Notes: generated by a model not told the origin, from the sequence alone. A stretch of 64,000 nt of DNA from Anaerolineae bacterium (GCA_046760785.1 JBHIET010000002.1:17052-81051), one strand, 5' to 3'. Shown: positions 3,001 to 63,384, counted from the stretch's first letter. Made by a program: numbers and translations.

Positions 3001-4385
3001 TGGTGACTGACACACTGCCGGCTGCATTGGACTTTCGGAGCGCCACGCCCACCTACGTCCGCAACGGCGCGGCGATCACCTGGACGTTGGGCAGCCTGGG
3101 GGTGGATCAGCAACGGCTGTACACGATCACAGCCCGGGTCACGGAGACCGTAGGAGCCGGTGTACCGCTGACCAACACGGCCAGGGTGGAGGGCACTTCG
3201 CAACCCGGTGTGGTGGACGAGGAGCGGGCGTACTCAGACGGCGCTCTGGCCACGGCTACCACCGGCTATCCCGATCTACTCGTCAGCAAGAGCGGGCCGC
3301 CGGTGCGCTCCCCGCTTCAGACCATCGCTTACACTGTTGCCTACACCAACGTTGGCGTGGTACGGGCCGAGGGGGTGTGGATCACGGACACGCTGCCCAT
3401 CTCGCTGACTGGTGTGGTCTCTGCCACGTCGGCCGGGGCAGCGGTAGAGCACGTGGGGCAGGTCGTCACCTGGACGCTGACCGCCCCGGTGAGCCGGGGG
3501 GTGAGTGGCCGCATTTGGATCACAGCCACCGTCTCGCCGACGGTTCGTGAAGGGGATGTGCTGACCAACGTGGTATCCGTCGAGGTCGTCACGACGACGG
3601 AGCAGGTGTTGGGGAACAACAGCGGACTGGTTACGACTACCATCCAGATGCCGTCGCTGGTCATCACCAAGACGGCGCATCCCTCGCCGGTGAGACCAGG
3701 AAGCCTGCTGACCTACACCCTCACCATCTCCAATACCGGGTTGGGCGACGCGACCGGCCTGGTCGTCAGCGACACGGTGCCGCCGAACACCGCCTATCGG
3801 TGGTGCAGCGGCGGTGATACGTGCGCCCACAATGGCGATGTGGTCACCTGGACGTTGGCTTCTCTGGAGGCCGCTCAGCAGGCCCAGGTCTCCTTGACCG
3901 TGTTGGTGGATGATGATACCATCTCCGGCACGACCGTCCTGAACCAGGCGTATAGTGTTACCTGTGCTCAGGGGGTGATGGCTACCGGCGCGCCGTTGAG
4001 CACCACGGTGGCTCTGGTGAGGGGGGTGAGCCTGGAGCCTGCGACTCTTGGGGCTTCCGTCTCGCCTGGCGAAAGCGCCGTCTACACGCACACGCTGACC
4101 AATCTGGGCAACGCTGTGGCGACGTTCGATTTGGCAGTGAGCAGCCCGCCGCCGGGCTGGACTTTTAGTCTCGATCCGCCTGGGGCTATCGTGGACCTGG
4201 CTCCAGATAGCACGGCGTTCGTTGCGCTGACGGTGCAGGCTCCCTCCGGCGGTACCGGCCAGGCAGTGGCACTCATTACGGCCACCTGGCATGGCGCGCC
4301 GAGCGTATTTGCCACGGCGCAGGATACGACGACCATTGGCTATGCTTACATCTACCTGCCGCTGGCGCTGCGAAACTATCGCTGA
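1..4385 (+). CDS. Large secreted/cell-surface repeat protein with parallel beta-helix repeats and multiple DUF11-like repeats (5' partial). The reading frame is open to position 1, so the gene starts upstream of the window.
   Basis: Frame open upstream of the GTG at 48 and still encoding beta-helix-like repeats (CHIYGNGDGVRVVDGG). Two blocks of NosD/pectate-lyase-like PbH1 repeats (NNVIAHNAGAGLQ..., GDGSGLYVYTATVTLANG...). DIDGD motifs. Repeated TYTxxVSNTG.../LPxxL DUF11-like modules. C-terminal tail YIYLPLALRNYR. Confidence 0.75.
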   Translation, partial: ISRCHIYGNGDGVRVVDGGLTLERTWVYSNTGDGVQVEGGAYALDNNVIAHNAGAGLQTASSSGALRHNTFARNGVAGAVISSTARFTNTIFYSHTTAISVAAGSTAYLSHTLWYSYTNLSAGPGTLISSTGVYSAPAFYDPDALDYHIRVGSGAINAGLDTGLNEDIDGDPRPLLGFADLGADEFALAISKWVTPSAAPGEVITYVITLEGEESGLVLTDTLHSHLSYTGTVACTVGSCGYLAATRAITWTGSISTAQPAYITYTAQITTWLAAGEEVVNDAWVQTGGEVLHVPEVRTTILPITGTRYVAPAGEDAQNNCRMDWKPCATVQQAVDQALAGDTVKVAQGTYTGSGANVVSITESLTLQGGYTTTNWLESDPVARPTILDGEGSRRVVHITGPVTVTLDGFRLINGFVNNGDGSGLYVYTATVTLANGRVYGNRTDGVGNDGGGIYQEGGSLTITATQVYSNTSDDGDGGGLYYRDGEFALVGSRVYSNTAGSGGGGLYLRSADVTLSGNYIYTNTATGLGGGLYVTGPTALDLTNNVIAANQAGSGGGGLYCDGGGSGYLRHTTIAENGVEGLRVGDFTLALTNTILVSHTVGITTSAAGASVTANYTLWDGTGVYTDTAGGGAITTANDLTGAPKFLAPEALDYHIRGDSAALDAGTWDGVAEDIDGDTRTAALVDVGADQYPLRLARWVSTSSAAPCEVVTHTLRLSNLRATPLAGVVLGDLLDDDVSWAGFVTTTTGSAVYSSSLHTVGWLGTVPAEGGEAVYITYTARITPYLTSGTLLTHVAGISDPISIFGTQPITVSVATLEATLGKSAVLTASLGQVVTYTVAFTVPAGHVAHEPTVVDALPRLVTGGGISTTPALTYVVGSGSPPPTALSADGTLTWTLSTVTATCDAAEVVTVTFAARVRGLADNGDGDLLTNTVTLSYTESSPTGPAHVLVRSHTATLVEPQPAIVKTLPFTTNLGSGDLVTVTIVVSNTGTGVLYDLVVTDTLPAALDFRSATPTYVRNGAAITWTLGSLGVDQQRLYTITARVTETVGAGVPLTNTARVEGTSQPGVVDEERAYSDGALATATTGYPDLLVSKSGPPVRSPLQTIAYTVAYTNVGVVRAEGVWITDTLPISLTGVVSATSAGAAVEHVGQVVTWTLTAPVSRGVSGRIWITATVSPTVREGDVLTNVVSVEVVTTTEQVLGNNSGLVTTTIQMPSLVITKTAHPSPVRPGSLLTYTLTISNTGLGDATGLVVSDTVPPNTAYRWCSGGDTCAHNGDVVTWTLASLEAAQQAQVSLTVLVDDDTISGTTVLNQAYSVTCAQGVMATGAPLSTTVALVRGVSLEPATLGASVSPGESAVYTHTLTNLGNAVATFDLAVSSPPPGWTFSLDPPGAIVDLAPDSTAFVALTVQAPSGGTGQAVALITATWHGAPSVFATAQDTTTIGYAYIYLPLALRNYR

Positions 4386-5957: not shown

Positions 5958-7093
5958 AAGGGCTGCGACCGATTCTCCTGCTTTTTCTGGCCTTTCGTCT
6001 GAGCCTGCTGGCCTTCTGGCCGGCCGATCAACTGGCCCGCTGGTCAGATTACGACTATTACTACGAGATCGCCGGTTGGGTGGAGCAGGGCCGGCTACCC
6101 TATCTCCACTACTGGGTCGAGTACCCGCCGCTGTTTCCTTACCTTTCGGTCCTGCTGTATCTGCTCGCGCCGCACTATGCGGCCTACGTGACCGGGCTGG
6201 CATTGGTGCAACTGGGTTTTGAGGCTGGCTCTTTGGTGCTGCTCTACCGGTTGGCCCGGCGGGTGGTGGGGGAGGAGCGGGCCGGCCGGGTGGCGTGGAC
6301 GTACGCACTGCTGTTCGCGCCGCTGGCGACCTGGTGGCTGAGTTTCGATGCCATCTCTATCTTCTTCCTGCTGCTGGCGGTCGAGCGGTGGCTGGCGGGC
6401 CGCCGGGTGCAGTCGGCGCTGGCGGTGGGTGCAGGCGGGCTGGTGAAGTGGTTGCCGTTGCTCTTCCTCCCTGTGGTTACCCGTTTCCGCCGGAGCTGGC
6501 GGGAGGCGGCAGGCTACGCGGCGGTAGCGCTGACCGTCGTCGGCTTGGTGCTGGGTTTGCTGGCCCTCCTCAGCCCGACGTACACCCTCGCCTCGCTCCG
6601 CTCGCTGGGGAGTCGTGCTTCCTGGCAGACGGTGTGGGCTTTGCTGGACGGGAACCTGGGGACAGGGGCCTACCAGGCCAGCCGCCTCGACCCCGCTGCT
6701 GCGACCCTCTCGCAGGGCAACCCGGCCCGCGTGCCGACGTGGCTTACCTTGCTCCTCTTCGGGGCGCTGTACCTGTGGCTGTGGTGGCGGACGCCTGGCA
6801 GGAAGGAACCCCGGTGCGTGCTCCGCTTCACTGCGCTGACCGTGCTGGTTTTCTTCCTCTGGTCACGGGGCTGGAGCCCCCAGTGGCTGGGGACGTTGGT
6901 GCCGCTGGTGTTGCTATCGCTTCCTCTGGAGCGGGCCACATTGTACCTGGTGGTGCTGACGTTCGTCAACATCGCCGAGTGGCCGGTGTTGCTTGGGCGG
7001 GGGATGAACGGGTGGCTGTGGGTGACGATCCCATTGCGCACTGGCCTTTTCCTCCTGCTGGCTGTAGAATTGTGGCAAAAGCTGCGAGAGTGA
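5954..7093 (+). CDS. Polytopic membrane protein, DUF2029/GT87-like putative glycosyltransferase
   Basis: ATG overlaps the upstream stop (ATGA). Motif DYDYYYEIAGW...LPY...WVEYPPLFPY resembles the D/Y..YPP signature of GT87/DUF2029 mannosyltransferase-like proteins. About 10 TM helices. Confidence 0.5.
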   Translation: MKGLRPILLLFLAFRLSLLAFWPADQLARWSDYDYYYEIAGWVEQGRLPYLHYWVEYPPLFPYLSVLLYLLAPHYAAYVTGLALVQLGFEAGSLVLLYRLARRVVGEERAGRVAWTYALLFAPLATWWLSFDAISIFFLLLAVERWLAGRRVQSALAVGAGGLVKWLPLLFLPVVTRFRRSWREAAGYAAVALTVVGLVLGLLALLSPTYTLASLRSLGSRASWQTVWALLDGNLGTGAYQASRLDPAAATLSQGNPARVPTWLTLLLFGALYLWLWWRTPGRKEPRCVLRFTALTVLVFFLWSRGWSPQWLGTLVPLVLLSLPLERATLYLVVLTFVNIAEWPVLLGRGMNGWLWVTIPLRTGLFLLLAVELWQKLRE

Positions 7094-8225: not shown

Positions 8226-9439
8226 TTCGGGCGGGTGAGATTTTCTGGAAAAGAGCGGTGTCCCGACGAGTGTCCTTGCTGATTCTGCTTGCGTTGGCTC
8301 TGTTTGCGCTGAACGCCTGGCTGGTGTACGCGCTCTTTACCTCGCGTGCCTCCATCGCCGTGTGGGATTTTCACCCCCGTTGGGTGGGGTTACGCGCGAT
8401 GTTGCGCGATGGGGCGGACCCGTACAGTGAGGAGGTGACGCTGGCGATCCAACGGCAGATGCTGGGCCGGCCCGCCCGCCCGGACGAGGATCAGGAGGCT
8501 TTTGCCTATCCGCTGCACGTGATGGTGCTCATCGGCCCACTGACCCTCTTGCCGTTGCCGGTGGCGCAGGCTTTGTGGTTTTCGCTGCTTGAGACCGGCC
8601 TGCTGCTCTTTATCTTTTTCGCGCCCCGTGCCGTCGGTTGGCGCCCTACTCCCCGGCTGCTGGCGTTGACTGCGCTCTTCACTCTGGGGCTGTATTCCAC
8701 CGTGTGGGCGCTGATTCTGGGGCAGACCTCTATCGTGGTGGCCGCCCTCATCGCGCTGGCGTGGTGGGGGCTGCGGGTCGGACGATGGGGGCTGGCCGGG
8801 GCCTGCCTGGCACTGGCGACGATCAAGCCCCAGATGACCTTTTTGCTGGTGCCGGGCCTGCTGGCCTGGGCGGTCTACCGGCGGCAACTGCGGCTGCTGG
8901 TCGTCTTCTCTGTGATCTTGGGCGGATTGGTCCTGCTGCCTGTCCCCTGGTTGCCGACCTGGCCGCTGGCGTGGTTGGCGGCGGCCGGTCGCTACGCCAG
9001 CTATACCGCTTTCGATCCACCTCTGGTGCTGCTGACGTGCTCCACCTGGTTAGCGGGCCTGGTCGCTGCCCTGCTGCTGGGCTGGACCGTGTACCGCTGG
9101 TGGCGTGCGGAGCGACGGAGAGATGCTTTTAATTGGGGACTGAGCATGCTCCTCGTCGTCAGCGGGTTGATCGCTCCACGCACCAGTCACGTCAATCAAC
9201 TGGTGTTGTTGTTGCCTCTCTTTTTCCTCTTCAAGCGGCTGTCAAAGGGGGGGATTGTCGCCGTCGTGGAAGCCGGGCTGCTGGCCGGGCCGTGGCTGCT
9301 GGACTGGGGGCTGGCTCCTCTCTTGGGTAGCTTGCAACACAGAGTGTGGCAGAACCAGTTCATCAGCCCCATCTTGCCGGTTGGATTGGCCCTGGCGTTG
9401 GTGTGCTTCAGTCCGTGGTCAGCGCGGGGAATGGATTAA
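8222..9439 (+). CDS. Polytopic membrane protein, DUF2029/GT87-like putative glycosyltransferase
   Basis: GTG start overlapping the upstream stop (GTGA). DF..W..LRAML.DGADPYS...FAYPLH pattern similar to the 5954 paralog. About 10 TM segments. Confidence 0.5.
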   Translation: MIRAGEIFWKRAVSRRVSLLILLALALFALNAWLVYALFTSRASIAVWDFHPRWVGLRAMLRDGADPYSEEVTLAIQRQMLGRPARPDEDQEAFAYPLHVMVLIGPLTLLPLPVAQALWFSLLETGLLLFIFFAPRAVGWRPTPRLLALTALFTLGLYSTVWALILGQTSIVVAALIALAWWGLRVGRWGLAGACLALATIKPQMTFLLVPGLLAWAVYRRQLRLLVVFSVILGGLVLLPVPWLPTWPLAWLAAAGRYASYTAFDPPLVLLTCSTWLAGLVAALLLGWTVYRWWRAERRRDAFNWGLSMLLVVSGLIAPRTSHVNQLVLLLPLFFLFKRLSKGGIVAVVEAGLLAGPWLLDWGLAPLLGSLQHRVWQNQFISPILPVGLALALVCFSPWSARGMD

Positions 9440-11922
9440 TGGGCTACTGCTGTTATTCTCTGAAGCGCCTCAACCTTGTCGTGACCATCGCGGTCGTTCT
9501 GGTTCAAACGGTAGGGGCCTACTTTTTCGGCAGCGGTTTCGACTTCGCTCTCTTCCGTGAGGCGACGTTGGACCACAACCCTTATGTCTGGCTCCCAGCG
9601 TATGGGTACTGGTTGCTCCGGCCGATTATGCTGCTTCCTTCTCGTCTTTCCCTGATCATAATAGTTCTTATCTCCTCTAGCTTGATGGCTTACACCGGGT
9701 ACAAGCTCACTGGAAGTGGGCTTCCGGCTTTACTCTCTTCAGCAGGTTTCCTCTCGGCGGAGACGGGTCAGATAGACGGCTTCGTCGCGTTGGGGCTGGT
9801 CTTGGGAGTCTTGGCCTGCGAACGACGGAAGCCTCACTTGCTGGGGGGCGCGCTTCTGTTGATGTCCCTGAAGCCGCACATTACCCTGGTCGCGGCCGTG
9901 TGGCTGATTGTGTACCTGCGCGATTGGCGCACGCTCCTGATCCCGGCGGGCGTATTCTTGCTCTCTCTGCTCACGGATGGGTTGTGGCCACTGGGTTTGC
10001 TCCAATCCCCGCCTCACGTTACCATGGTACCGCATAACATCTCGCTGTGGAGGCTCTGCGGCCCGTCTCTTCTTCCTTTGCTGGCCTTGCCTTTTCTGTT
10101 CGGTAGGCGCGATCCCCGGCGCGCGGTGACGCTGGCCGTCGCTGCGTCTGCTCTGGCGATGCCTTACTACAATTTCTACAGCCTGGACGTACTCTTCGGT
10201 GTGGGCGTTTCTCCCTGGCTGGTCCCTCTGACCTATATCCCGTTCCTGCCCTGGCCGGCGCAGTGGGAAGCCTGGCACGTCCTCGTATTGGCGTTCGTCC
10301 CGGCCCTGGGGCTGATCCTGCTGCTGGTGCGGCAGCGCTCTGGGTGGCGACGCTCTCGGTGGCTTCGGAGTTGGTACCGGCCGCTGCTGATCCTGCTGAC
10401 AGCGTTTCTGGCGCGGACGATCCACCTGCAGGGCCGCGCACTCTGGTACGACGAGTCCTTCGCCGCCCTGTACGCCTCTTTGAGTCCCGGCCAGATGATC
10501 TACGGCACGGTGGCGCCGGTGGCAGGGGCCGGCGCGGCCGACGTCCATCCCCTGCTCTACTACTTCCTGCTCCATGGCTGGATGGGGTTGGTGGGCCACT
10601 CTCCCCTGGCGCTGCGTTTCCTCTCTGTGGCTTTGGGCATGATCGCCGTGGCCCTGCTCTGGCGGCTGGCGGCCTGGTGCTTTGGTCGTCGGACGGGTTT
10701 GGTGGTGGGGTTGCTGGCGGCGGTGAACCCCTTCCACGTGGCCTACTCTCAGGAGGCACGGATGTACGGGTTGCTGGGCCTGGCGGCAGTGACAGCGGCT
10801 TGGGGGTTGCTGCGAGCACTGGAGGGCGCAGAGGAGCAAGGGACAACACGCAACACGCAACACGCAACACGCGACACGTTTCACGTTCTTGGTCATTGGT
10901 CATTGTTCATTGTGGGAGCTGCCCTCACCCTCTACGCCCACAACCTGGGTGCCTTTGTCCTGCTGGCTTTCCATCTGTTGGTCGTCGTCCGCCGCCGCTG
11001 GTGGCGTCGCCTGCCGGCCCTGGCCCTGGCCGACCTGGCCGCGCTGGCCCTCTTCGGTCCTTGGCTGGTGCTGGTGTTGCCGGGGCAGGTGGGTTTTGTG
11101 GGAAGAGGGTATTGGCTGACGCCGCCGGGCGTTGAGGAGGCGGTTCGTGCCATCATGCTCCCGCTCCTCACCTTCTACGAGCCTGCGCCGCTATGGCTCC
11201 TGGGGTTGAGCCTCTTCACAGGCGTGTTGCTCCTGACCCTGCTGATCCTGCGGCTCTGGCGGACCCGCTCGCGGGCCGGTTGGTTCCTCTTGCTGTGCTG
11301 GGTGCCGATCTTGCTCATCCTGCTCGCCTCCCTCTGGCGACCGGTCTACCTGGAGCGGGCACTGTTGCCCTCGGAGCTCTTTTATCTGGTGTCGGTGGGA
11401 TGGCTCCTGGCGCGGGGAGGGCTGCCGCGTCTCTTGCGCCTGGCGCTCGCGCTGCTGCTGGCGCTGGCGACACTGGGAGCGCTGGGGGTTCACTATACCT
11501 ACGCTCGTTTCCCCCGCCCCCCATTCGCCCGGCTGACCGCCTTTCTGCGGGAGAGAGTGACTCACGGGGAGGTGGTGGTCCACGACAACAAACTCACCTT
11601 CTTCCCGGCTCACTATTATGACCCCGCGCTGCCCCAAACTTTCTGCCCCGATCTGCCCGGCAGCGGCTCGAACACGCTGGCGCTGCCCACCCAAGAGGCA
11701 TTGGGGCTCTTTGCCACCCCCATCAGCCAGACGGTGGCCAGCGGGGTGACGGGGGTGTGGTACGTGGCCTTTGACCGCACCTGGGAGGAGTATCGCGTCC
11801 TGGGCTACGCCGACGCGCCCAACCGGACCTGGCTGCGTGCCCGCTGCCACCGGGAGGGGGAGGTGCACACGATCGCCGATCTGGAGATCTACCACTTTGC
11901 GAATTGTGAGGCAGAGCCGTGA
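9439..11922 (+). CDS. Two-domain polytopic membrane glycosyltransferase: N-terminal DUF2029-like domain fused to a C-terminal ArnT/PMT-like GT-C domain
   Basis: ATG at 9439 overlaps the upstream TAA by 1 nt (TAATG). First ~300 aa carry DFALFREATLDHNPYVW (DUF2029-like). Second half carries RTIHLQGRALWYDESFAALY (W-x-DE ArnT/PMT motif). Contains an in-frame heptamer repeat tract at 10844-10913. Confidence 0.6.
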   Translation: MGYCCYSLKRLNLVVTIAVVLVQTVGAYFFGSGFDFALFREATLDHNPYVWLPAYGYWLLRPIMLLPSRLSLIIIVLISSSLMAYTGYKLTGSGLPALLSSAGFLSAETGQIDGFVALGLVLGVLACERRKPHLLGGALLLMSLKPHITLVAAVWLIVYLRDWRTLLIPAGVFLLSLLTDGLWPLGLLQSPPHVTMVPHNISLWRLCGPSLLPLLALPFLFGRRDPRRAVTLAVAASALAMPYYNFYSLDVLFGVGVSPWLVPLTYIPFLPWPAQWEAWHVLVLAFVPALGLILLLVRQRSGWRRSRWLRSWYRPLLILLTAFLARTIHLQGRALWYDESFAALYASLSPGQMIYGTVAPVAGAGAADVHPLLYYFLLHGWMGLVGHSPLALRFLSVALGMIAVALLWRLAAWCFGRRTGLVVGLLAAVNPFHVAYSQEARMYGLLGLAAVTAAWGLLRALEGAEEQGTTRNTQHATRDTFHVLGHWSLFIVGAALTLYAHNLGAFVLLAFHLLVVVRRRWWRRLPALALADLAALALFGPWLVLVLPGQVGFVGRGYWLTPPGVEEAVRAIMLPLLTFYEPAPLWLLGLSLFTGVLLLTLLILRLWRTRSRAGWFLLLCWVPILLILLASLWRPVYLERALLPSELFYLVSVGWLLARGGLPRLLRLALALLLALATLGALGVHYTYARFPRPPFARLTAFLRERVTHGEVVVHDNKLTFFPAHYYDPALPQTFCPDLPGSGSNTLALPTQEALGLFATPISQTVASGVTGVWYVAFDRTWEEYRVLGYADAPNRTWLRARCHREGEVHTIADLEIYHFANCEAEP
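10844..10913. repeat. Ten-unit heptanucleotide tandem repeat tract (CAACACG x4, CGACACG, TTTCACG, then TCATTGG/TCATTGT units) lying in-frame inside the GT-C gene
   Basis: Read directly: caacacg caacacg caacacg caacacg cgacacg tttcacg ttcttgg tcattgg tcattgt tcattgt. Encodes the low-complexity peptide TTRNTQHATRDTFHVLGHWSLFIV between TM segments. Confidence 0.8.
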
Positions 11923-13574
11923 GTTGGGAAGTCTCGTGGAAGGAATACCGCTGGGCGGCGGCGGTCGCCTTGGTGGTGGTGGCTCTCTCTACCATCCCGT
12001 ATGCCGCCGGTTACCTGGCCCAGACTCCTGACCTGCGCTTTGCCGGAGCCGTTTTCGATCTGGAGGATTATCACAGCCACCTGGCCAAGATGTGGCAGGG
12101 ATACTGGGGGGAGTGGCGCTACCGGCTGCTCTTTACCTCCGAGGAGCACGAGGGTGCGTATCTGCAGACGTTCTACGTGGCGTTGGGCCATTGTGCACGA
12201 CTGCTGGGATTGGGCCTGCCGCTCACCTACCACCTGGCACGGGTTGTGGCGGGCGTGGTGCTCCTGCTGACCGTCTACCGCTTCGTCGCGCTCTTCACCG
12301 CCGGGGAGGTGCGGAGCGTTGCCTTCCTGCTGGCGGCCACCTCTTCCGGCCTGGGATGGCTGGTCGAGGGGCTGTGCCCCACGCCGCCGGGTGGGATCTC
12401 CCCCATTGATTTCTGGCTCATTGACGCCTACACCTTCTTTTCCCTGTTCACCTTTCCCCATTTCTCCGCTGCCGTCGCGCTCTTACTTTCGCTGTACGGG
12501 ATGCTGCTGCGGTTGGCGGAAGGTGTGTCGCCTGGAAGCGTGCCACGTTTGCGAGATGTGGTGGCAGTGATTCTCCTATCCTGGGGATTGGGCCTCGTCC
12601 ACCCCTATGCCCTGCTCCTGGCCGACCTGGTTCCGGCGCTCTATCTGATCTGGCGCACCGTCGTGGAACGACGATTGCCCCTGCGCCTGCTGCTCGCCCT
12701 GGTTGCGATGGGACTGGCCCAGGCACCGCTCCTGCTGTACGACTACCGCGTCTTTGCCACCTCACCTGTCTTTGGTGCCTGGTCTGCTCAGAACCTCACC
12801 CTCTCTCCGCCTCCTCTGCACTACCTCCTGGGTTACGGCGTCGTGGCGCTGCTGGCAGCGTGGGGAGTTCGTTCGGCCCTCCGGGCTTCCCGACGCGTTC
12901 CGTTCCTGCTTCTGTGGGTTGTTGTCGCCTTCTCTCTGGCGTACTTTCCCTGGGGGTTGCAGCGCCGCTTCGTCGAGGGCCTCCACGCGGGGTTGTGCGT
13001 GCTGGCGGGGTACGGACTGGTGGAGGGGCTGCTGCCCGTGTTGGCCCGACCACTGGGGCGGCTGGCCCGTCTCCTGCACTACAGTCCCCGGCGGCTGCGC
13101 TGGTTGGCGCGGGGGCTGGTCCTGGCGCTGGCCGCTCTCTCCAATCTCTACCTGATCGCCACCTACACGCTGGCGGCAGCGGCCTGGCACCCGGACCTGT
13201 TTCACTCTGCCGATCAAGTCGCAGCCGGGGAGTGGCTAGCGGCCAACACCGAATGGCAGGAGACGGTGCTGGCTGCTTATGAAACCGGCAATTGGCTCGC
13301 CGGGACCATCGGTCGCCGGGTAGTGCTGGGCCACTGGGCGGAGACGATGGATTGTGAGGCGAAGCGGGAGCAGGTGGCAGCCTTCTACTCGGAGGGCGCG
13401 TCTGAGGCGGAGCGGCGCGGGTTGTTGGAGCGATGGAACGTGCACTACGTCTACCTTGGCCCGGAGGAGCGGGCGCTGGGTGGGTTCGATCCAGCAATGA
13501 CCTCATACCTGAAGCTGGTGTTCCAGCAGGGGGATGCATCGGTCTACCGGGTGACGCTGGAGGGGGCACCGTGA
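11919..13574 (+). CDS. Polytopic membrane protein of the same array (GT-C-like, family not recognised)
   Basis: GTG start overlapping the upstream stop (GTGA). At least 12 predicted TM helices. Soluble C-terminal ~120 aa domain. Positioned between ArnT-like paralogs. Confidence 0.45.
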   Translation: MSWEVSWKEYRWAAAVALVVVALSTIPYAAGYLAQTPDLRFAGAVFDLEDYHSHLAKMWQGYWGEWRYRLLFTSEEHEGAYLQTFYVALGHCARLLGLGLPLTYHLARVVAGVVLLLTVYRFVALFTAGEVRSVAFLLAATSSGLGWLVEGLCPTPPGGISPIDFWLIDAYTFFSLFTFPHFSAAVALLLSLYGMLLRLAEGVSPGSVPRLRDVVAVILLSWGLGLVHPYALLLADLVPALYLIWRTVVERRLPLRLLLALVAMGLAQAPLLLYDYRVFATSPVFGAWSAQNLTLSPPPLHYLLGYGVVALLAAWGVRSALRASRRVPFLLLWVVVAFSLAYFPWGLQRRFVEGLHAGLCVLAGYGLVEGLLPVLARPLGRLARLLHYSPRRLRWLARGLVLALAALSNLYLIATYTLAAAAWHPDLFHSADQVAAGEWLAANTEWQETVLAAYETGNWLAGTIGRRVVLGHWAETMDCEAKREQVAAFYSEGASEAERRGLLERWNVHYVYLGPEERALGGFDPAMTSYLKLVFQQGDASVYRVTLEGAP

Positions 13575-15250
13575 ACCGAGTTCGGCGAGACCTGGCGGCG
13601 CTGTTCGTTCTCTCCCTGACGGTGCGGCTGGCCGTAGCCGCCCTCATCCCCCGGCCCGGTTACATGGACGCGGCCTACTACGCCGCCGGAGCGGTGCATC
13701 TTGCCGGGGGGGGAGGGGTGAATGATCCTTTCCTCTGGAACTATTTGGATGACCCCACGGGCATTCCTCACCCCGGGTTCCTCTACTGGATGCCGCTCCC
13801 CTCTCTCCTGGCGGCTCCCTTTGCCTCTCTCTTCCCGGGCTCCTTCTTTGCCCTCCAGCTTCCCTTTGCGCTTCTCTCCGCCCTGCTCCCCCTCGTCGCC
13901 TACGGGCTGGCCTGGGAAGTCGCCGGTCGGCACCGTGCGGCCTGGCTGGCGTCGCTCCTTACGCTCTTCAGCGGCTTCTTCTTCCCCTACTGGACCCTCC
14001 CGGAGACGTTTGCTCCGTTTGCCCTTTTCGGCAGCTTGGCGCTGTGGCTCGCCGGAAGATGGCGGCTGACTACTGACCACTGGCTACTGACTACTGACTA
14101 CTGGCTACTGACTACTGGCTACTGGCTACTGACTGGGTTGCTGGTCGGCCTGGCTCACCTCACCCGCGCCGATGGCATCCTGTTGTTGCCCGTGGTCGCC
14201 CTTGTCCCTCTGGCCTTCGCTCAACCACACAACGCCCAGCACGCAACACGCGCTGTCCTGAGCTTGTCGAAGGGCAATACGCAATACGTAACACGTTCGT
14301 TCATTGTTCATTGTTCATTGATCCTCCTCGGCTATCTCCTTGCGATGGCTCCCTGGTTCCTCCGCAACCTCTCCCTCATCGGCACCCCTCTCTCTCCGGC
14401 CGGCACCAAGACCCTCTGGCTGCGCACCTACGACGACATTTTCTGCTATGGCTGTGCTCTCTCCCCCCGCTCTTACCTGGCCTGGGGGTGGGGGAACATC
14501 TGGCACTCCAAATTGTGGGCGCTGGGGGTGAACCTGGAGCGGTTCCTGGCGGAGGACTGCCTGGTCTTCCTGCTGCCTTTCGTTCTCGTTGGCCTGTACC
14601 GCTTGCGCCATCGCCTCTCTTTCACCCTTGCCCTCATCTACTTTTTCCTCATTTACTTCCTCCATTCCCTGGCCTTTACTTTTCCCGGCCCTCGCGGCGG
14701 CTTCTTCCACGCCAGCGCTCCTGCCTTGCCCTTCCTCTTTGCCGCCGCTGCGGAGGGATTGGAGGCAACGCTGGGCTGGGCGGCCCGGCACCGGAGCTGG
14801 AAGCGGGGGCAGGCCCAGCTGATCTTTGGCACAGCGACGGTGGTGGCGGCGGTGATCCTGAGCGGCTACGCGACGGCGGGTAAACTGCTCGCCTGGCGGA
14901 GCGCTGACCAGGCTTATCTGGAGATTGATGTGTGGCTGGATGGGCACGACGTGCCGGATAGTACAATGGTCATGGTTGGCAACCCCCCTGCTTTTTGGTA
15001 TCATACTCGTAGACCGGCCGTGGTTGTGCCCAACGGTGATTCCGACGCGTTATTGGAGGTCTGCGCCCGTTACCGGGCGGATTACGTCGTGTTGGACGAG
15101 AACAGGCCGGGGGCGTTGGCCGGGGTGTATGAGGGTGCGAGAGTGACAGGGTTGCGGTTGATGGCGACATTCGACGGCGCGCGGGTCAGACTCTACCGCC
15201 GGGTAGAGGGGCCGGAGGGAGGATGTTTCGGCGTTTTCGACGCTTTCTGA
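13571..15250 (+). CDS. Polytopic membrane glycosyltransferase, ArnT/PMT-like GT-C fold
   Basis: GTG start overlapping the upstream stop (GTGA). N-terminal TM then YMDAAYYAAGAVHL loop typical of ArnT/PMT-like enzymes. Many TM segments. C-terminal soluble domain. Carries two in-frame repeat insertions. Confidence 0.6.
   Translation: MNRVRRDLAALFVLSLTVRLAVAALIPRPGYMDAAYYAAGAVHLAGGGGVNDPFLWNYLDDPTGIPHPGFLYWMPLPSLLAAPFASLFPGSFFALQLPFALLSALLPLVAYGLAWEVAGRHRAAWLASLLTLFSGFFFPYWTLPETFAPFALFGSLALWLAGRWRLTTDHWLLTTDYWLLTTGYWLLTGLLVGLAHLTRADGILLLPVVALVPLAFAQPHNAQHATRAVLSLSKGNTQYVTRSFIVHCSLILLGYLLAMAPWFLRNLSLIGTPLSPAGTKTLWLRTYDDIFCYGCALSPRSYLAWGWGNIWHSKLWALGVNLERFLAEDCLVFLLPFVLVGLYRLRHRLSFTLALIYFFLIYFLHSLAFTFPGPRGGFFHASAPALPFLFAAAAEGLEATLGWAARHRSWKRGQAQLIFGTATVVAAVILSGYATAGKLLAWRSADQAYLEIDVWLDGHDVPDSTMVMVGNPPAFWYHTRRPAVVVPNGDSDALLEVCARYRADYVVLDENRPGALAGVYEGARVTGLRLMATFDGARVRLYRRVEGPEGGCFGVFDAF
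14064..14133. repeat. Ten-unit heptanucleotide tandem repeat (TACTGAC/TACTGGC) in-frame inside the GT-C gene
   Basis: ggctgac tactgac cactggc tactgac tactgac tactggc tactgac tactggc tactggc tactgac. Encodes RLTTDHWLLTTDYWLLTTGYWLLTG. Confidence 0.85.
14226..14320. repeat. Composite repeat element: CACGCAA-type heptamers + 24-nt core CTGTCCTGAGCTTGTCGAAGGGCA + CAATACG/TAACACG heptamers + GTTCATT x3, in-frame in the coding sequence
   Basis: Same unit types as 10844-10913, with an added core at 14253-14275. On the + strand it encodes AVLSLSKG. Its complement encodes ALRQAQDSA (LRQAQD-type repeat peptide). Confidence 0.8.
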
Positions 15251-16638
15251 CGCTGTTGGCTATCGGCGATGTGTTACTCACCCTGGCGGCCCTGGCGTTG
15301 GCCGCCTTCTTGCGCCACGCCCTGCCGTGGGGCAAACCACTGGGGGCGTCAGAGTACCCTCTCGTGGCACCGGTCGTCTACGGCGTGGTGGCCCTGGTCT
15401 GGCCGGTGGCTTTCCAGATGCTCAAGGTCTATGACTCGCACCTGGCCACCAGTGCCCGCGGCCAGATTCGACGGATCACTCCGGCTGTCCCGATCTCGGT
15501 CTTTGTGTTGGGAGGCTTCCTGTATTTTACCTACCGCGAGGTGCCACGCCTGCTGGTGGTCTACTTCGCCGGGCTGGATTGGCTCCTGCTCGCTTCGATG
15601 CGCGTCGTGGCGGTGGCGTTGCTGCGCACCCTCCGGGACGTGCGGCGCACGGCCGGGCGCGTCCTGATCGTCGGAGCAGGCGAGACGGCTGTGGAAGTGG
15701 CCGAGATCATCAACCGTGAACTGTCCCCGGCCTATCACGTCGTCGGGCTCGTCGCCGACGATGAAGACGATGAGTCGGAACAGGCTGGCCGCTGGCCCAT
15801 TCTCGGACGGATCGCCGAGACGGGCGTCGTTGCCTGGCAAAAGGGATGCGACGAGATCATCATCGCCCTGCCCTCCGAGCGTCACGAGGACATTGATGCC
15901 ATCGTCTACGAATTGCAGGAACAGCCGGTGCACATTTACATCGTCCCGGACCTCTTTCGCCTGGCGCTGGTGCGCGCCCGTGCCGAGACCCTCTTTGGTG
16001 TGCCGCTGGTGGGGCTGCGCGAGCCGGTGATTGATGGGGTGGATTGGGCGATCAAGCGCACCTTCGATCTGCTGCTGACGCTGGTGGCGCTTCCCCTCGC
16101 CCTGCCGGTGATGGCGCTCGTCGCGCTGGCGATCAAACTGGATGATGGAGGGCCGGTTCTCTTCCAGCAAGAACGTATCGGAGAAAATGGACGTCGTTTT
16201 CGTATGCTCAAATTCCGCACCATGGTGCCGGGGGCCGAAAGGTTGCAGGCCCAGGTGACCCGGCTGGATGAGAAGGGCAGTCCGGTATACAAAGTATCTC
16301 ACGACCCGCGCGTCACCAGAGTGGGGCGTTTCTTGCGCCGCTGGAGCCTCGACGAGCTTCCCCAACTCTTCAACGTCTTGCGCGGGGAGATGAGCCTGGT
16401 GGGGCCGCGCCCGGAGCAGGTCTTCGTCGTCGAGCAGTATGAGCCGTGGCAGCGGCAACGGTTAGCCGTGCCACCGGGGATGACCGGCTGGTGGCAGGTC
16501 AGCGGCCGCAGTGACCTGCCCATGCACCTGAACACGCAATATGACCTGTTCTACATCCGCAACTACTCGCTGTGGCTCGACCTCAAGATTCTGTGGTTGA
16601 CGGTTTGGGCTGTGTTGCGGGGGGAAGGGGCGTATTGA
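15223..16638 (+). CDS. Polyprenyl-phosphate sugar-1-phosphate transferase (WbaP/WcaJ-like initiating bacterial sugar transferase)
   Basis: N-terminal TM segments. Central Rossmann-like region. C-terminal Bac_transf-type block [13 protein letters not shown]...[16 protein letters not shown]...LWLDLKILW. Good RBS GGAGGGAGG before the ATG at 15223. Confidence 0.85.
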
Positions 16639-62847: not shown

Positions 62848-62866
62848 ATTTGTGTCTCCTTCTAGG

Positions 62867-62894
62867 TTTCACGTTTCACGCTTCACGTTTGCCC
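62867..62894. repeat. Heptanucleotide tandem tract (TTTCACG TTTCACG CTTCACG TTTGCCC) at the leuD-ilvE junction; it encodes the last codons and stop of leuD
   Basis: On the minus strand, gca aac gtg aag cgt gaa acg tga = ANVKRET* of LeuD, built from CGTGAAA-type units. Same unit type as 10879-10885. Confidence 0.75.
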
Positions 62895-63384
62895 CTGCCA
62901 CTCTCTGCCGCGTATAGGGTACCAACCCTCCAGCCCTGACGATCTCCATGACGAAAGCGGGCATCGGCGTCGTCCGGTAGACCCGGCCGGTACGTTCGTT
63001 AGTGATCGTGCCAGCCCTCAGATCCATTGTCAACGGATCGCCCTTCTCCGTCCCCTCCACCGCCTCCGGACACTCCAAGATGGGCAGGCCGACGTTGATA
63101 CTGTTCCGGTAGAAGATGCGGGCGAAGCTCTTGGCGACGACGCAGCAGACGCCAGCCCCCTTGATCGCCAGCGGCGCGTGCTCCCGCGACGACCCGCAGC
63201 CGAAGTTCTCCCCGGCGACGATGACGTCCCCCGGTTGCACCGCACCGGCAAACTCTGGGGCGATGTCCTCCATGCAATGCTGCGCCAATTCCTCCGGCGT
63301 GGAAACGTTCAGGTAGCGGGCTGGAATGATGGCGTCGGTATCCACGTTGTCGCCGTACTTCCAGACCGTGCCTCTAATCTTCAT
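62869..63384 (-). CDS. leuD: 3-isopropylmalate dehydratase small subunit
   Basis: MKIRGTVWKYGDNVDTDAIIPARYL... canonical LeuD. Confidence 0.9.
   Translation of the reverse strand: MKIRGTVWKYGDNVDTDAIIPARYLNVSTPEELAQHCMEDIAPEFAGAVQPGDVIVAGENFGCGSSREHAPLAIKGAGVCCVVAKSFARIFYRNSINVGLPILECPEAVEGTEKGDPLTMDLRAGTITNERTGRVYRTTPMPAFVMEIVRAGGLVPYTRQRVAGANVKRET

Follow-up and report, generated by a model that had tools for sequence, protein, structure and literature searches.

Three consecutive plus-strand genes for polytopic membrane proteins are found in a 64,000-nucleotide (nt) stretch of DNA from an Anaerolineae bacterium (GCA_046760785.1, JBHIET010000002.1:17052-81051). The whole stretch is called the window here and has a G+C content of ~62%. 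Genes 1 and 3, both predicted membrane glycosyltransferases, carry tracts of seven-nucleotide (heptamer) repeats within their coding sequences. The product of gene 1 matches PMT_2 with 38.3 bits (Pfam cutoff 26.1) and GT87 with 32.8 bits, and is a 100% match to P0121, described as [quoted passage not shown]. The product of gene 3 is a 100% match to P0001, the "ArnT family glycosyltransferase" of an Anaerolineae metagenome-assembled genome (MAG). The ArnT label is the putative assignment of the source annotation; the PMT_2 score of gene 3 (20 bits) is below the Pfam cutoff, and many gene 3 orthologs carry PF13231. The three genes are part of a series that encodes polytopic membrane proteins (GT87, PMT-like and unknown ones) and adjoins a sugar-transferase gene, and the whole looks like an envelope-glycan operon.

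The arrays have been located with Tandem Repeats Finder (TRF) and their units then read in register (Table 1). Exact runs of period 7 with a length of 20 nt or more occur four times in the window (29, 20, 20 and 22 nt), each time within gene 1 or gene 3. At equivalent thresholds, the other periods from 4 to 12 give no exact run within the window, and 100 first-order Markov simulations of the window contain no comparable period-7 run. The heptamer tracts are genuine and far exceed what chance would produce, and the initial annotation was right to place in-frame heptamer tracts in two glycosyltransferase genes. The longest exact runs amount to at most four perfect units, so the tracts are short and impure, not long perfect repeats. 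Five of the six arrays are internal to open reading frames (ORFs), i.e. not predominantly intergenic, and arrays touch three genes in these 64 kb of the MAG.

Table 1. Genes, repeat arrays and their parts in the window (x, copy number).
Feature	Position	Strand	Description
Gene 1	9439..11922	+	827-residue polytopic membrane glycosyltransferase; GT87-like N-terminal part fused to PMT_2/GT39-like part
CAACACG x5.0	10844-10878		TRF period 7, 96% matches
Polar block (CAACACG)4-CGACACG-TTTCACG	10844..10885	+	encodes TRNTQHATRDTFH
GTTCATT/TTGGTCA x3.4-4.3	10885-10913		TRF period 7
Hydrophobic block TTCTTGG-TCATTGG-TCATTGT-TCATTGT	10886..10913	+	encodes VLGHWSLFIV, continues into the next membrane helix
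Gene 2	11919..13574	+	551-residue polytopic membrane protein; no Pfam match; no array in the window
Gene 3	13571..15250	+	559-residue membrane glycosyltransferase with predicted GT-C fold; source annotation "ArnT family"
CTGACTA x9.9	14066-14134		TRF period 7, 87% matches; period 21 x3.3, 95%
Loop 1 array (CTGACTA/CTGACCA/CTGGCTA)x10	14066..14135	+	21-nt superperiod; encodes LTTDHWLLTTDYWLLTTGYWLLT
CACG-type heptamer remnant (CCAGCAC GCAACAC GC)	14236..14251	+	encodes QHATR; orthologs have RNTQHATR-type peptides here
Unique 24-nt core GCTGTCCTGAGCTTGTCGAAGGGC	14252..14275	+	encodes AVLSLSKG; interrupts the heptamer region
GCAATAC x2.1	14274-14288		TRF period 7
GCAATAC x2, then GTAACACGTTC	14274..14298	+	the latter are degenerate CACG-type units
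GTTCATT x3.1	14299-14320		TRF period 7, 100% matches
(GTTCATT)x3.1	14299..14320	+	encodes SFIVHCS, N-terminal part of the following membrane helix
GTTTCAC x3.6	62866-62890		TRF period 7; sixth tract, absent from the list of the initial annotation

In register, the gene 1 tract (10844-10913) consists of ten heptamers: four of CAACACG, one each of CGACACG, TTTCACG, TTCTTGG and TCATTGG, and two of TCATTGT. The hydrophobic block that these last four units form is identical in the sister contig L001. One of its TRF units, TTGGTCA, is presumably equal to STRR2 of Calothrix. The count of ten units in 70 nt given earlier for this tract holds as arithmetic, but the tract is a composite with only four perfect units. 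The N-terminal part of gene 1 (9439-10390) is a GT87-like membrane part of ~300 residues fused to the PMT_2 part to give 827 residues. This fusion is present in the window and its closest relatives (L001 4827-7310; L002), and most orthologs have ~510 residues and the PMT_2 part only.

Gene 3 carries repeats at two sites, which we will call loop 1 and loop 2. The loop 1 array is made of CTGACTA (four units), CTGACCA (one), CTGGCTA (four) and a terminal CTGACTG. The three units that fall in codon phase 2, at 14080, 14101 and 14122, are all CTGGCTA, which reads TGG, where CTGACTA would give an in-frame TGA. Period 21 describes loop 1 better than period 7 (95% vs 87% matches) because every third unit is the stop-avoiding variant. 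The same every-third-unit rule is found in the GTTTGAC/GTTTCAC arrays of relatives. This pattern argues that the arrays have been translated for a long time, with persistent selection for an open frame.

The loop 2 element (14226-14320) is composite, as previously described: in register it contains about two CACG-type units, the unique 24-nt core, two units of GCAATAC and three of GTTCATT. The core is single-copy in the window, was found in none of 62 related loci and is missing from L001. Its reverse complement has a 21-nt exact match in the unrelated Anaerolineales contig L111 (4286-4306), and the core is likely to be one of the short repeats dispersed among Chloroflexota. The idea that the composite contains structured RNA or DNA has been rejected, as the fold of 14220-14325 is not significant (z = -0.40). 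A known RNA family has likewise been rejected, as an Rfam search over 9000-16000 gave no match at E up to 1.

Both ORFs are open across their tracts, so both genes are currently in frame. Simulated gain or loss of one unit truncates the gene 1 product at 557-567 of 827 residues and the gene 3 product at 177, 247 or 439 of 559 residues. The earlier statements that both genes are ON and that a single-unit change would frameshift them are thus borne out.

The tracts were also said to encode non-conserved loops, and the ortholog alignments agree. Among 119 gene 1 orthologs, ~40% have a minimal loop, LLRALEEGR-LRWWALY, without an insert, and the others have inserts of 5-60 residues at exactly the position of the 10844-10913 tract. 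The lengths of both loops are hypervariable in an alignment of 120 gene 3 orthologs that have 60-72% identity, and many of these sequences contain loop peptides with a seven-residue period. Such peptides are the translation of three heptamers. Examples are WILDTRY, RMQDAGC and MENGEWR in loop 1, and RNTQHAT (from CAACACG), VSRFTFH (from GTTTCAC) and HWSLVIG/HCSLFIV (from CATTGGT/CATTGTT) in loop 2. A block order of polar followed by hydrophobic units is found in gene 1, in gene 3 loop 2 and in orthologs. The gene 1 site and loop 1 of gene 3 both directly precede a G-x-x-L helix (HLTRADG / YAHNLG) and appear to be homologous. Judged from these alignments, the inserts are derived and patchy and are not conserved at the protein level.

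The sister contig L001 is syntenic with the window and has 86% nucleotide identity over gene 1. Its gene 1 tract reads (CAACACG)1-CGACACG-(TTTCACG)4, compared with 4, 1 and 1 of the same units in the window, and the total length is equal. In gene 3 loop 1, four units are found in L001 and ten in the window, a difference of 42 nt. Loop 2 of L001 is without a stretch of ~38 nt that includes the 24-nt core, and has (TTTGACG/TTTCACG)x4 where the window has GTTCATT. The differences in the gene 1 tract and in loop 1 are multiples of three units. Comparison of sister lineages, which had been proposed as a check, therefore shows that unit numbers change and that each net change preserves the frame.

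Closer comparisons give the same step size. When proteins are clustered at 90% identity or above, the full-length alleles of one cluster are separated by seven-residue steps (545/552/538, 559/566 and 542/521/528 residues). Allele pairs with at least 98% identical flanks have equal loop lengths in 258 of 266 comparisons and are exactly seven residues (21 nt) apart in the remaining eight. At 90-98% identity, loop differences of 7, 14 and 21 residues predominate.

A metagenome scan with gene 3 yielded 61 loci with flanks. These loci were found by short peptide patterns flanking the loops, so that frameshifted alleles were not excluded. Both gene 3 loops are spanned by 47 loci, of which 33 carry a period-7 array and one (L043) shifts frame at the tract; at the gene 1 site, none of 21 loci is out of frame. 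Out-of-frame lengths are thus rare and not common alongside in-frame ones, with ~98% of related loci in frame. At the OFF frequency of 0.656 published for the phase-variable NeuO gene discussed below, the probability of finding at most one OFF locus in 45 would be 1e-19, for loci that are not fully independent.

The frame-shifted allele of L043 (10689-10815) carries a GTTT[C/G]AC array of 16 units that is identical in L185 and L186, i.e. in three independent assemblies. The array is one unit short of the C-G-G 21-nt pattern, which produces an in-frame TGA overlapping a TTG start (TTGA). The gene is thereby split at the loop into ORFs of 248-270 and 323 residues, with all membrane helices kept. 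Both ORFs share 99-100% identity with P0020 and P0321, which are in-frame alleles, and the C-terminal ORF is recorded on 10 contigs. The allele may be a split gene that is still functional, or it may have become a pseudogene recently. An origin by collapse of a longer array seems less likely, since an array with a 21-nt period would be expected to collapse by 21 nt at a time, and not by 7. A second frameshift allele, L065, has two additional TTCATTG units compared with the in-frame alleles P0071 and P0279, in an array of 63 nt that sequencing reads should span.

Three other candidates have been rejected. P0322/L063 is not a broken OFF allele, since a scaffold gap of 100 N (2841-2940) lies inside its array of at least 21 units. 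In P0278/L187, the tract is joined to unrelated DNA. To the left of the TTCATTG tract, an unrelated minus-strand gene (L187 1-330) replaces the N-terminal half of the gene 3 ortholog, and the junction reflects chimeric assembly or else a genuine rearrangement at the heptamer tract. The frameshift of L041 is at residue 476/478, away from the tracts. Some relatives have arrays of 16 to at least 21 units, and assemblies break at the tracts: the gap in L063 is in MAG GCA_964385635.1, the contigs L056-L059 end at the two loops, and L044, L046 and L051 start there.

Period-7 arrays are not confined to the window. In a census of 728,650 nt of the window and related contigs, counting arrays with at least three copies, period 7 accounts for 123 arrays and any other period for at most 29. 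The period-7 arrays form 95 clusters from 44 different units. Gene 3 orthologs hold 55 of the clusters and gene 1 orthologs 13, and most others are in GT-C or membrane genes of the operon (~750-residue PMT-like proteins, GT87 and gene 2 orthologs). Altogether, 78 of 95 clusters (82%) are in polytopic membrane ORFs, which cover 42% of the sampled DNA. The gene 2 orthologs in question, with arrays of GAATGCG, ATGCGGA and CAGATTG, are the ORFs immediately 5' of the gene 3 orthologs in L013, L025, L028, L043, L045 and L057. Long in-frame arrays (AATCCGC x16.6, CCAATCT x10.4 and CCATCCT x10.6) are found in the ~750-residue PMT-like proteins upstream in the operon of relatives (L025 3364-3479; L024 760-833; L045 123-195; L057 4413-4485). 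The window copies of the neighboring GT-C genes are without arrays.

A scan of species-representative genomes with (CAACACG)3 found at least 119 stretches. Among the matches listed, many are from Chloroflexota (Anaerolineae, Caldilineaceae, Chloroflexia, Thermoflexia), and Verrucomicrobiota, Bacteroidota, Alcanivorax and others also occur. Some Chloroflexota have several loci per genome, e.g. OY969916.1 and DAOUMU01. In this cross-phylum sample, 85 of the 123 arrays among the matches listed (~69%) are near ORF ends or outside long ORFs, and nine are inside polytopic membrane proteins, some of them PMT-like and from Verrucomicrobiota. CAACACG arrays are located between membrane helices of large polytopic proteins in L078 (Candidatus Aquidulcis; 4117-4137), L088 (a Verrucomicrobiota PMT-like protein with a GLMSK motif; 7069-7089) and L161 (4747-4767), and in L078 and L161 the array is followed by TTTCACG-like units. 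As read from these sequences, the same loop-insertion pattern recurs outside Anaerolineae.

As no relatives of gene 3 were found in the PDB at the sequence level, a fold search was used in their place. An AlphaFold2 model of gene 3 was built on 54 orthologs, with a predicted template-modeling (TM) score of 0.75. Searched against the PDB with Foldseek, the model finds STT3, AglB, PglB, ArnT, DPY19 and AftA (E = 1e-6 to 6e-4, with 1e-6 to 1e-4 for the first four; probability 1.00, TM-score 0.3-0.43). The predicted structure therefore matches a GT-C fold glycosyltransferase. In the model, the polar repeat-coded segments (residues 162-174 and 216-235) are coil with a low predicted local distance difference test score, and the hydrophobic repeat-coded segments open the helices that follow (from residue 175, and the helix 236-270). 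The C-terminal soluble domain of GT-C enzymes is extracytoplasmic. From the parity of the helices, counted both from the arginine-rich N-terminus and from the C-terminal domain, together with the positive-inside rule, both loops of gene 3, which are arginine-rich, are probably cytoplasmic. Such loops would be hidden from phage and antibodies, and an antigenic role of the in-frame variants is therefore disfavored.

Taken together, these observations are probably best explained by slippage-prone heptamers that are tolerated in the likely cytoplasmic loops and kept open by purifying selection. We propose that heptamer repeats arise readily in these genomes and expand and contract by replication slippage, which is itself inferred. 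Across this Anaerolineae clade, the loops of the paralogous GT-C genes 1 and 3, and of other GT-C genes of the operon, gather arrays of many unit sequences. Three heptamers correspond to seven codons, so that a pure array encodes the same cyclic seven-residue peptide in all frames. The downstream frame would survive only where the net change is 21 nt or where changes in neighboring arrays of one loop compensate each other. Purifying selection may then filter the slippage products down to in-frame variants and fix variants that remove in-phase stops. In useful or essential membrane enzymes, the repeats could persist only within permissive loops and in frame. The expected outcome is hypervariability of the loops in both length and sequence while the genes stay ON, with frameshift alleles as occasional by-products. 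The polar units (CAACACG, TTTCACG) would serve as a disordered linker and the hydrophobic ones (TCATTGK, CTGGCTA) would lengthen the neighboring helix; the in-frame length variants themselves are presumably selectively neutral.

Several observations weigh against this explanation and overlap with the case for a contingency locus, in which the tracts would be selected as slipped-strand ON/OFF switches of envelope glycosylation, e.g. for escape from phage. Frameshift alleles do occur at the tracts, as the 16-unit allele present in three assemblies and the two additional units of L065 demonstrate, and consensus assemblies mask minority length variants, so that low-level switching may go unseen. 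The cytoplasmic placement of the loops is an inference and not a measurement. Period 7 outnumbers each of the triplet-compatible periods (6, 9 and 12) by at least fourfold, although such periods should prevail in coding DNA if the loops merely tolerated inserts. The concentration of arrays in several GT-C paralogs of one operon resembles the gene-class bias of contingency loci. To this can be added that one unit more or less truncates both proteins, that tract lengths vary among relatives, and that the glycan-modifying NeuO provides a precedent (PMC13001214). A role as switches nevertheless seems unlikely. The tracts are in frame in 46 of 47 gene 3 loci and 21 of 21 gene 1 loci, compared with 65.6% OFF in NeuO, and near-identical alleles nearly always share the tract length or else are 21 nt apart. 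The tracts themselves are impure, none in the window having more than four perfect units, and the 21-nt superperiod with its stop-avoiding units favors in-frame slips. The position of the tracts is mid-gene and away from the 5' end, in loops that are probably cytoplasmic, and at least one apparently broken allele (L063) is a scaffold gap. Phase variation, which the initial annotation had suggested as the function, is thus mechanically possible but not supported as the role of these tracts.

A further possibility, which we consider quite unlikely, is that the whole GT-C operon has been colonized by heptamers across a broad clade of free-living, uncultured Anaerolineae and that these act as low-frequency contingency switches or as clean splitters of the enzymes. 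One-unit slips would then disable the enzymes or split them at the cytoplasmic loop, as in the L043-type allele, and would give a non-pathogen heritable and reversible diversity of cell-surface glycans, e.g. against phage. Functional tuning, in which the number of heptads modulates enzyme activity or interactions and the length variation is itself adaptive, is in our view very unlikely. It would account for the dominance of in-frame seven-residue steps and for the recurring order of polar and hydrophobic blocks, and the poly-heptad N-terminus of NeuO, whose repeat length is reported to raise activity, offers a parallel (PMC13001214). It is at odds with the many orthologs that have no insert at the gene 1 site, with the use of 44 unrelated unit sequences, and with loops that are predicted to be disordered at low confidence and have no visible sequence conservation. 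A last possibility, which we judge highly improbable, is that the composites are a small mobile element, such as a miniature inverted-repeat transposable element or a small dispersed repeat, inserted in frame by chance. The order CAACACG-TTTCACG-TCATTGK is shared by two genes and the unrelated genomes L078, L083, L161 and L177, and both the absence of the core (14252-14275) from L001 and its 21-nt match in an unrelated contig would be compatible with mobility. Against this, no inverted repeats were found in or around the tract regions of genes 1 and 3, and the composite has no significant fold. No further copy of the core occurs in the window or the 62 related loci, and there are no repeated full-length copies. 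The 44 units and the varying unit counts are what slippage predicts.

To our knowledge, nearly all hypermutable loci of the contingency type have been described in host-adapted pathogens. A true contingency locus in an environmental member of the Chloroflexota would extend the concept to the dynamics of phage and bacteria in natural communities. The evidence points to a more modest, clade-wide case, in which a marked mutational bias toward 7-nt repeats meets purifying selection and yields heptad-periodic, probably cytoplasmic loops of hypervariable length in membrane enzymes. For metagenomics, long heptamer tracts are a practical matter, as they fragment or gap assemblies and split gene calls. 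The tracts also seed protein databases with low-complexity peptides such as RNTQHAT, VSRFTFH and HWSLVIG.

A minus-strand leuD-like ORF (62869-63384) ends in the array at 62866-62890, which supplies its final five codons and its TGA stop. The ribosome-binding site and start codon of an ilvE-like ORF are directly downstream of this array. Changes in unit number here would affect only the C-terminal tail of the leuD-like ORF.

Several known repeat systems can be compared with these tracts. No relevant account of heptamer repeats in Chloroflexi or Anaerolineae came up in the literature searches, and as far as these show, clade-wide in-frame heptamer arrays in probably cytoplasmic loops of several Anaerolineae GT-C paralogs are new. 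The lipooligosaccharide and lipopolysaccharide glycosyltransferases of Haemophilus and Neisseria are tetranucleotide contingency loci (reviewed in PMC2651432); they are soluble GT-A or GT-B enzymes with perfect, 5'-proximal tracts and a high switching rate. In them, as in the genes described here, repeats are located within glycosyltransferase ORFs and gain or loss of units shifts the frame. In Haemophilus and Neisseria, however, the enzymes are soluble, the tracts are perfect and at the 5' end, and switching has been demonstrated, whereas the tracts described here are impure and mid-gene, in predicted GT-C membrane enzymes.

Among the longer repeats of many bacteria, heptameric ones show the strongest over-representation; they are usually intergenic, and their excess may come from the slippage geometry of the polymerase (PMC4692102; PMC4679880). 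The period-7 excess found here fits this published over-representation. Dispersed heptamers include three of Calothrix PCC 7601 (STRR), GGGAATC of Xanthomonas, GGGGA(T/C)T of Nostoc and TAACTGA of Beggiatoaceae and cyanobacteria (PMC4692102; PMC4679880). The present arrays resemble them in the 7-nt unit, probably in the number of loci per genome, in the extensive differences of length and sequence among close relatives and in the attribution to polymerase slippage (PMC4692102; PMC4679880), and (CAACACG)n is likewise scattered in Chloroflexota genomes. The dispersed heptamers are mostly intergenic and under-represented in coding regions (PMC4692102), whereas the arrays of the window and its relatives are mostly in frame within membrane glycosyltransferase genes.

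The initial annotation had also suggested a first hint of contingency-style phase variation in this kind of organism, with heptamers in place of homopolymers or tetramers, but heptamer-based switching within genes is already known in principle: phase variation by in-ORF heptanucleotides is described for NeuO (PMC13001214) and for hmw1A and the HI1369 homologue of H. influenzae (PMC2651432). In H. influenzae, TGAAAGA is found in the promoter of hmw1A and hmw2A, and AATTTTG (hmw1A, strain PittAA) and AACAACC (HI1369 homologue) are found within ORFs (PMC2651432). These heptamers also belong to surface-protein genes, and the in-ORF examples have frameshifted alleles (PMC2651432). The difference is that H. 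influenzae is a host-adapted pathogen with perfect tracts of 8-38 units and frequent frameshifts, whereas short, impure, in-frame tracts are found here in environmental Chloroflexota.

A close parallel is NeuO, an O-acetyltransferase of E. coli K1 carried by the CUS-3 prophage, whose coding sequence contains an AAGACTC heptanucleotide repeat (PMC13001214). Translation to full length requires a unit number divisible by 3, and the repeat is translated as heptad peptides (PMC13001214). In 42 of 64 complete genomes (65.6%) neuO is OFF, and variants with one unit more or less occur within single cultures (PMC13001214). The same paper cites earlier work in which a longer repeat gives a higher catalytic activity (PMC13001214). 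Both systems thus have an in-ORF heptanucleotide repeat, translated as heptads, in a surface-glycan enzyme, which is putative in the present case. In NeuO, the repeat is perfect, has 3-53 units and is located at the 5' end, whereas the tracts here are mid-gene, impure and of at most ten units. Likewise, the 65.6% of genomes that are OFF in NeuO contrast with the ~98% of loci that are in frame here.

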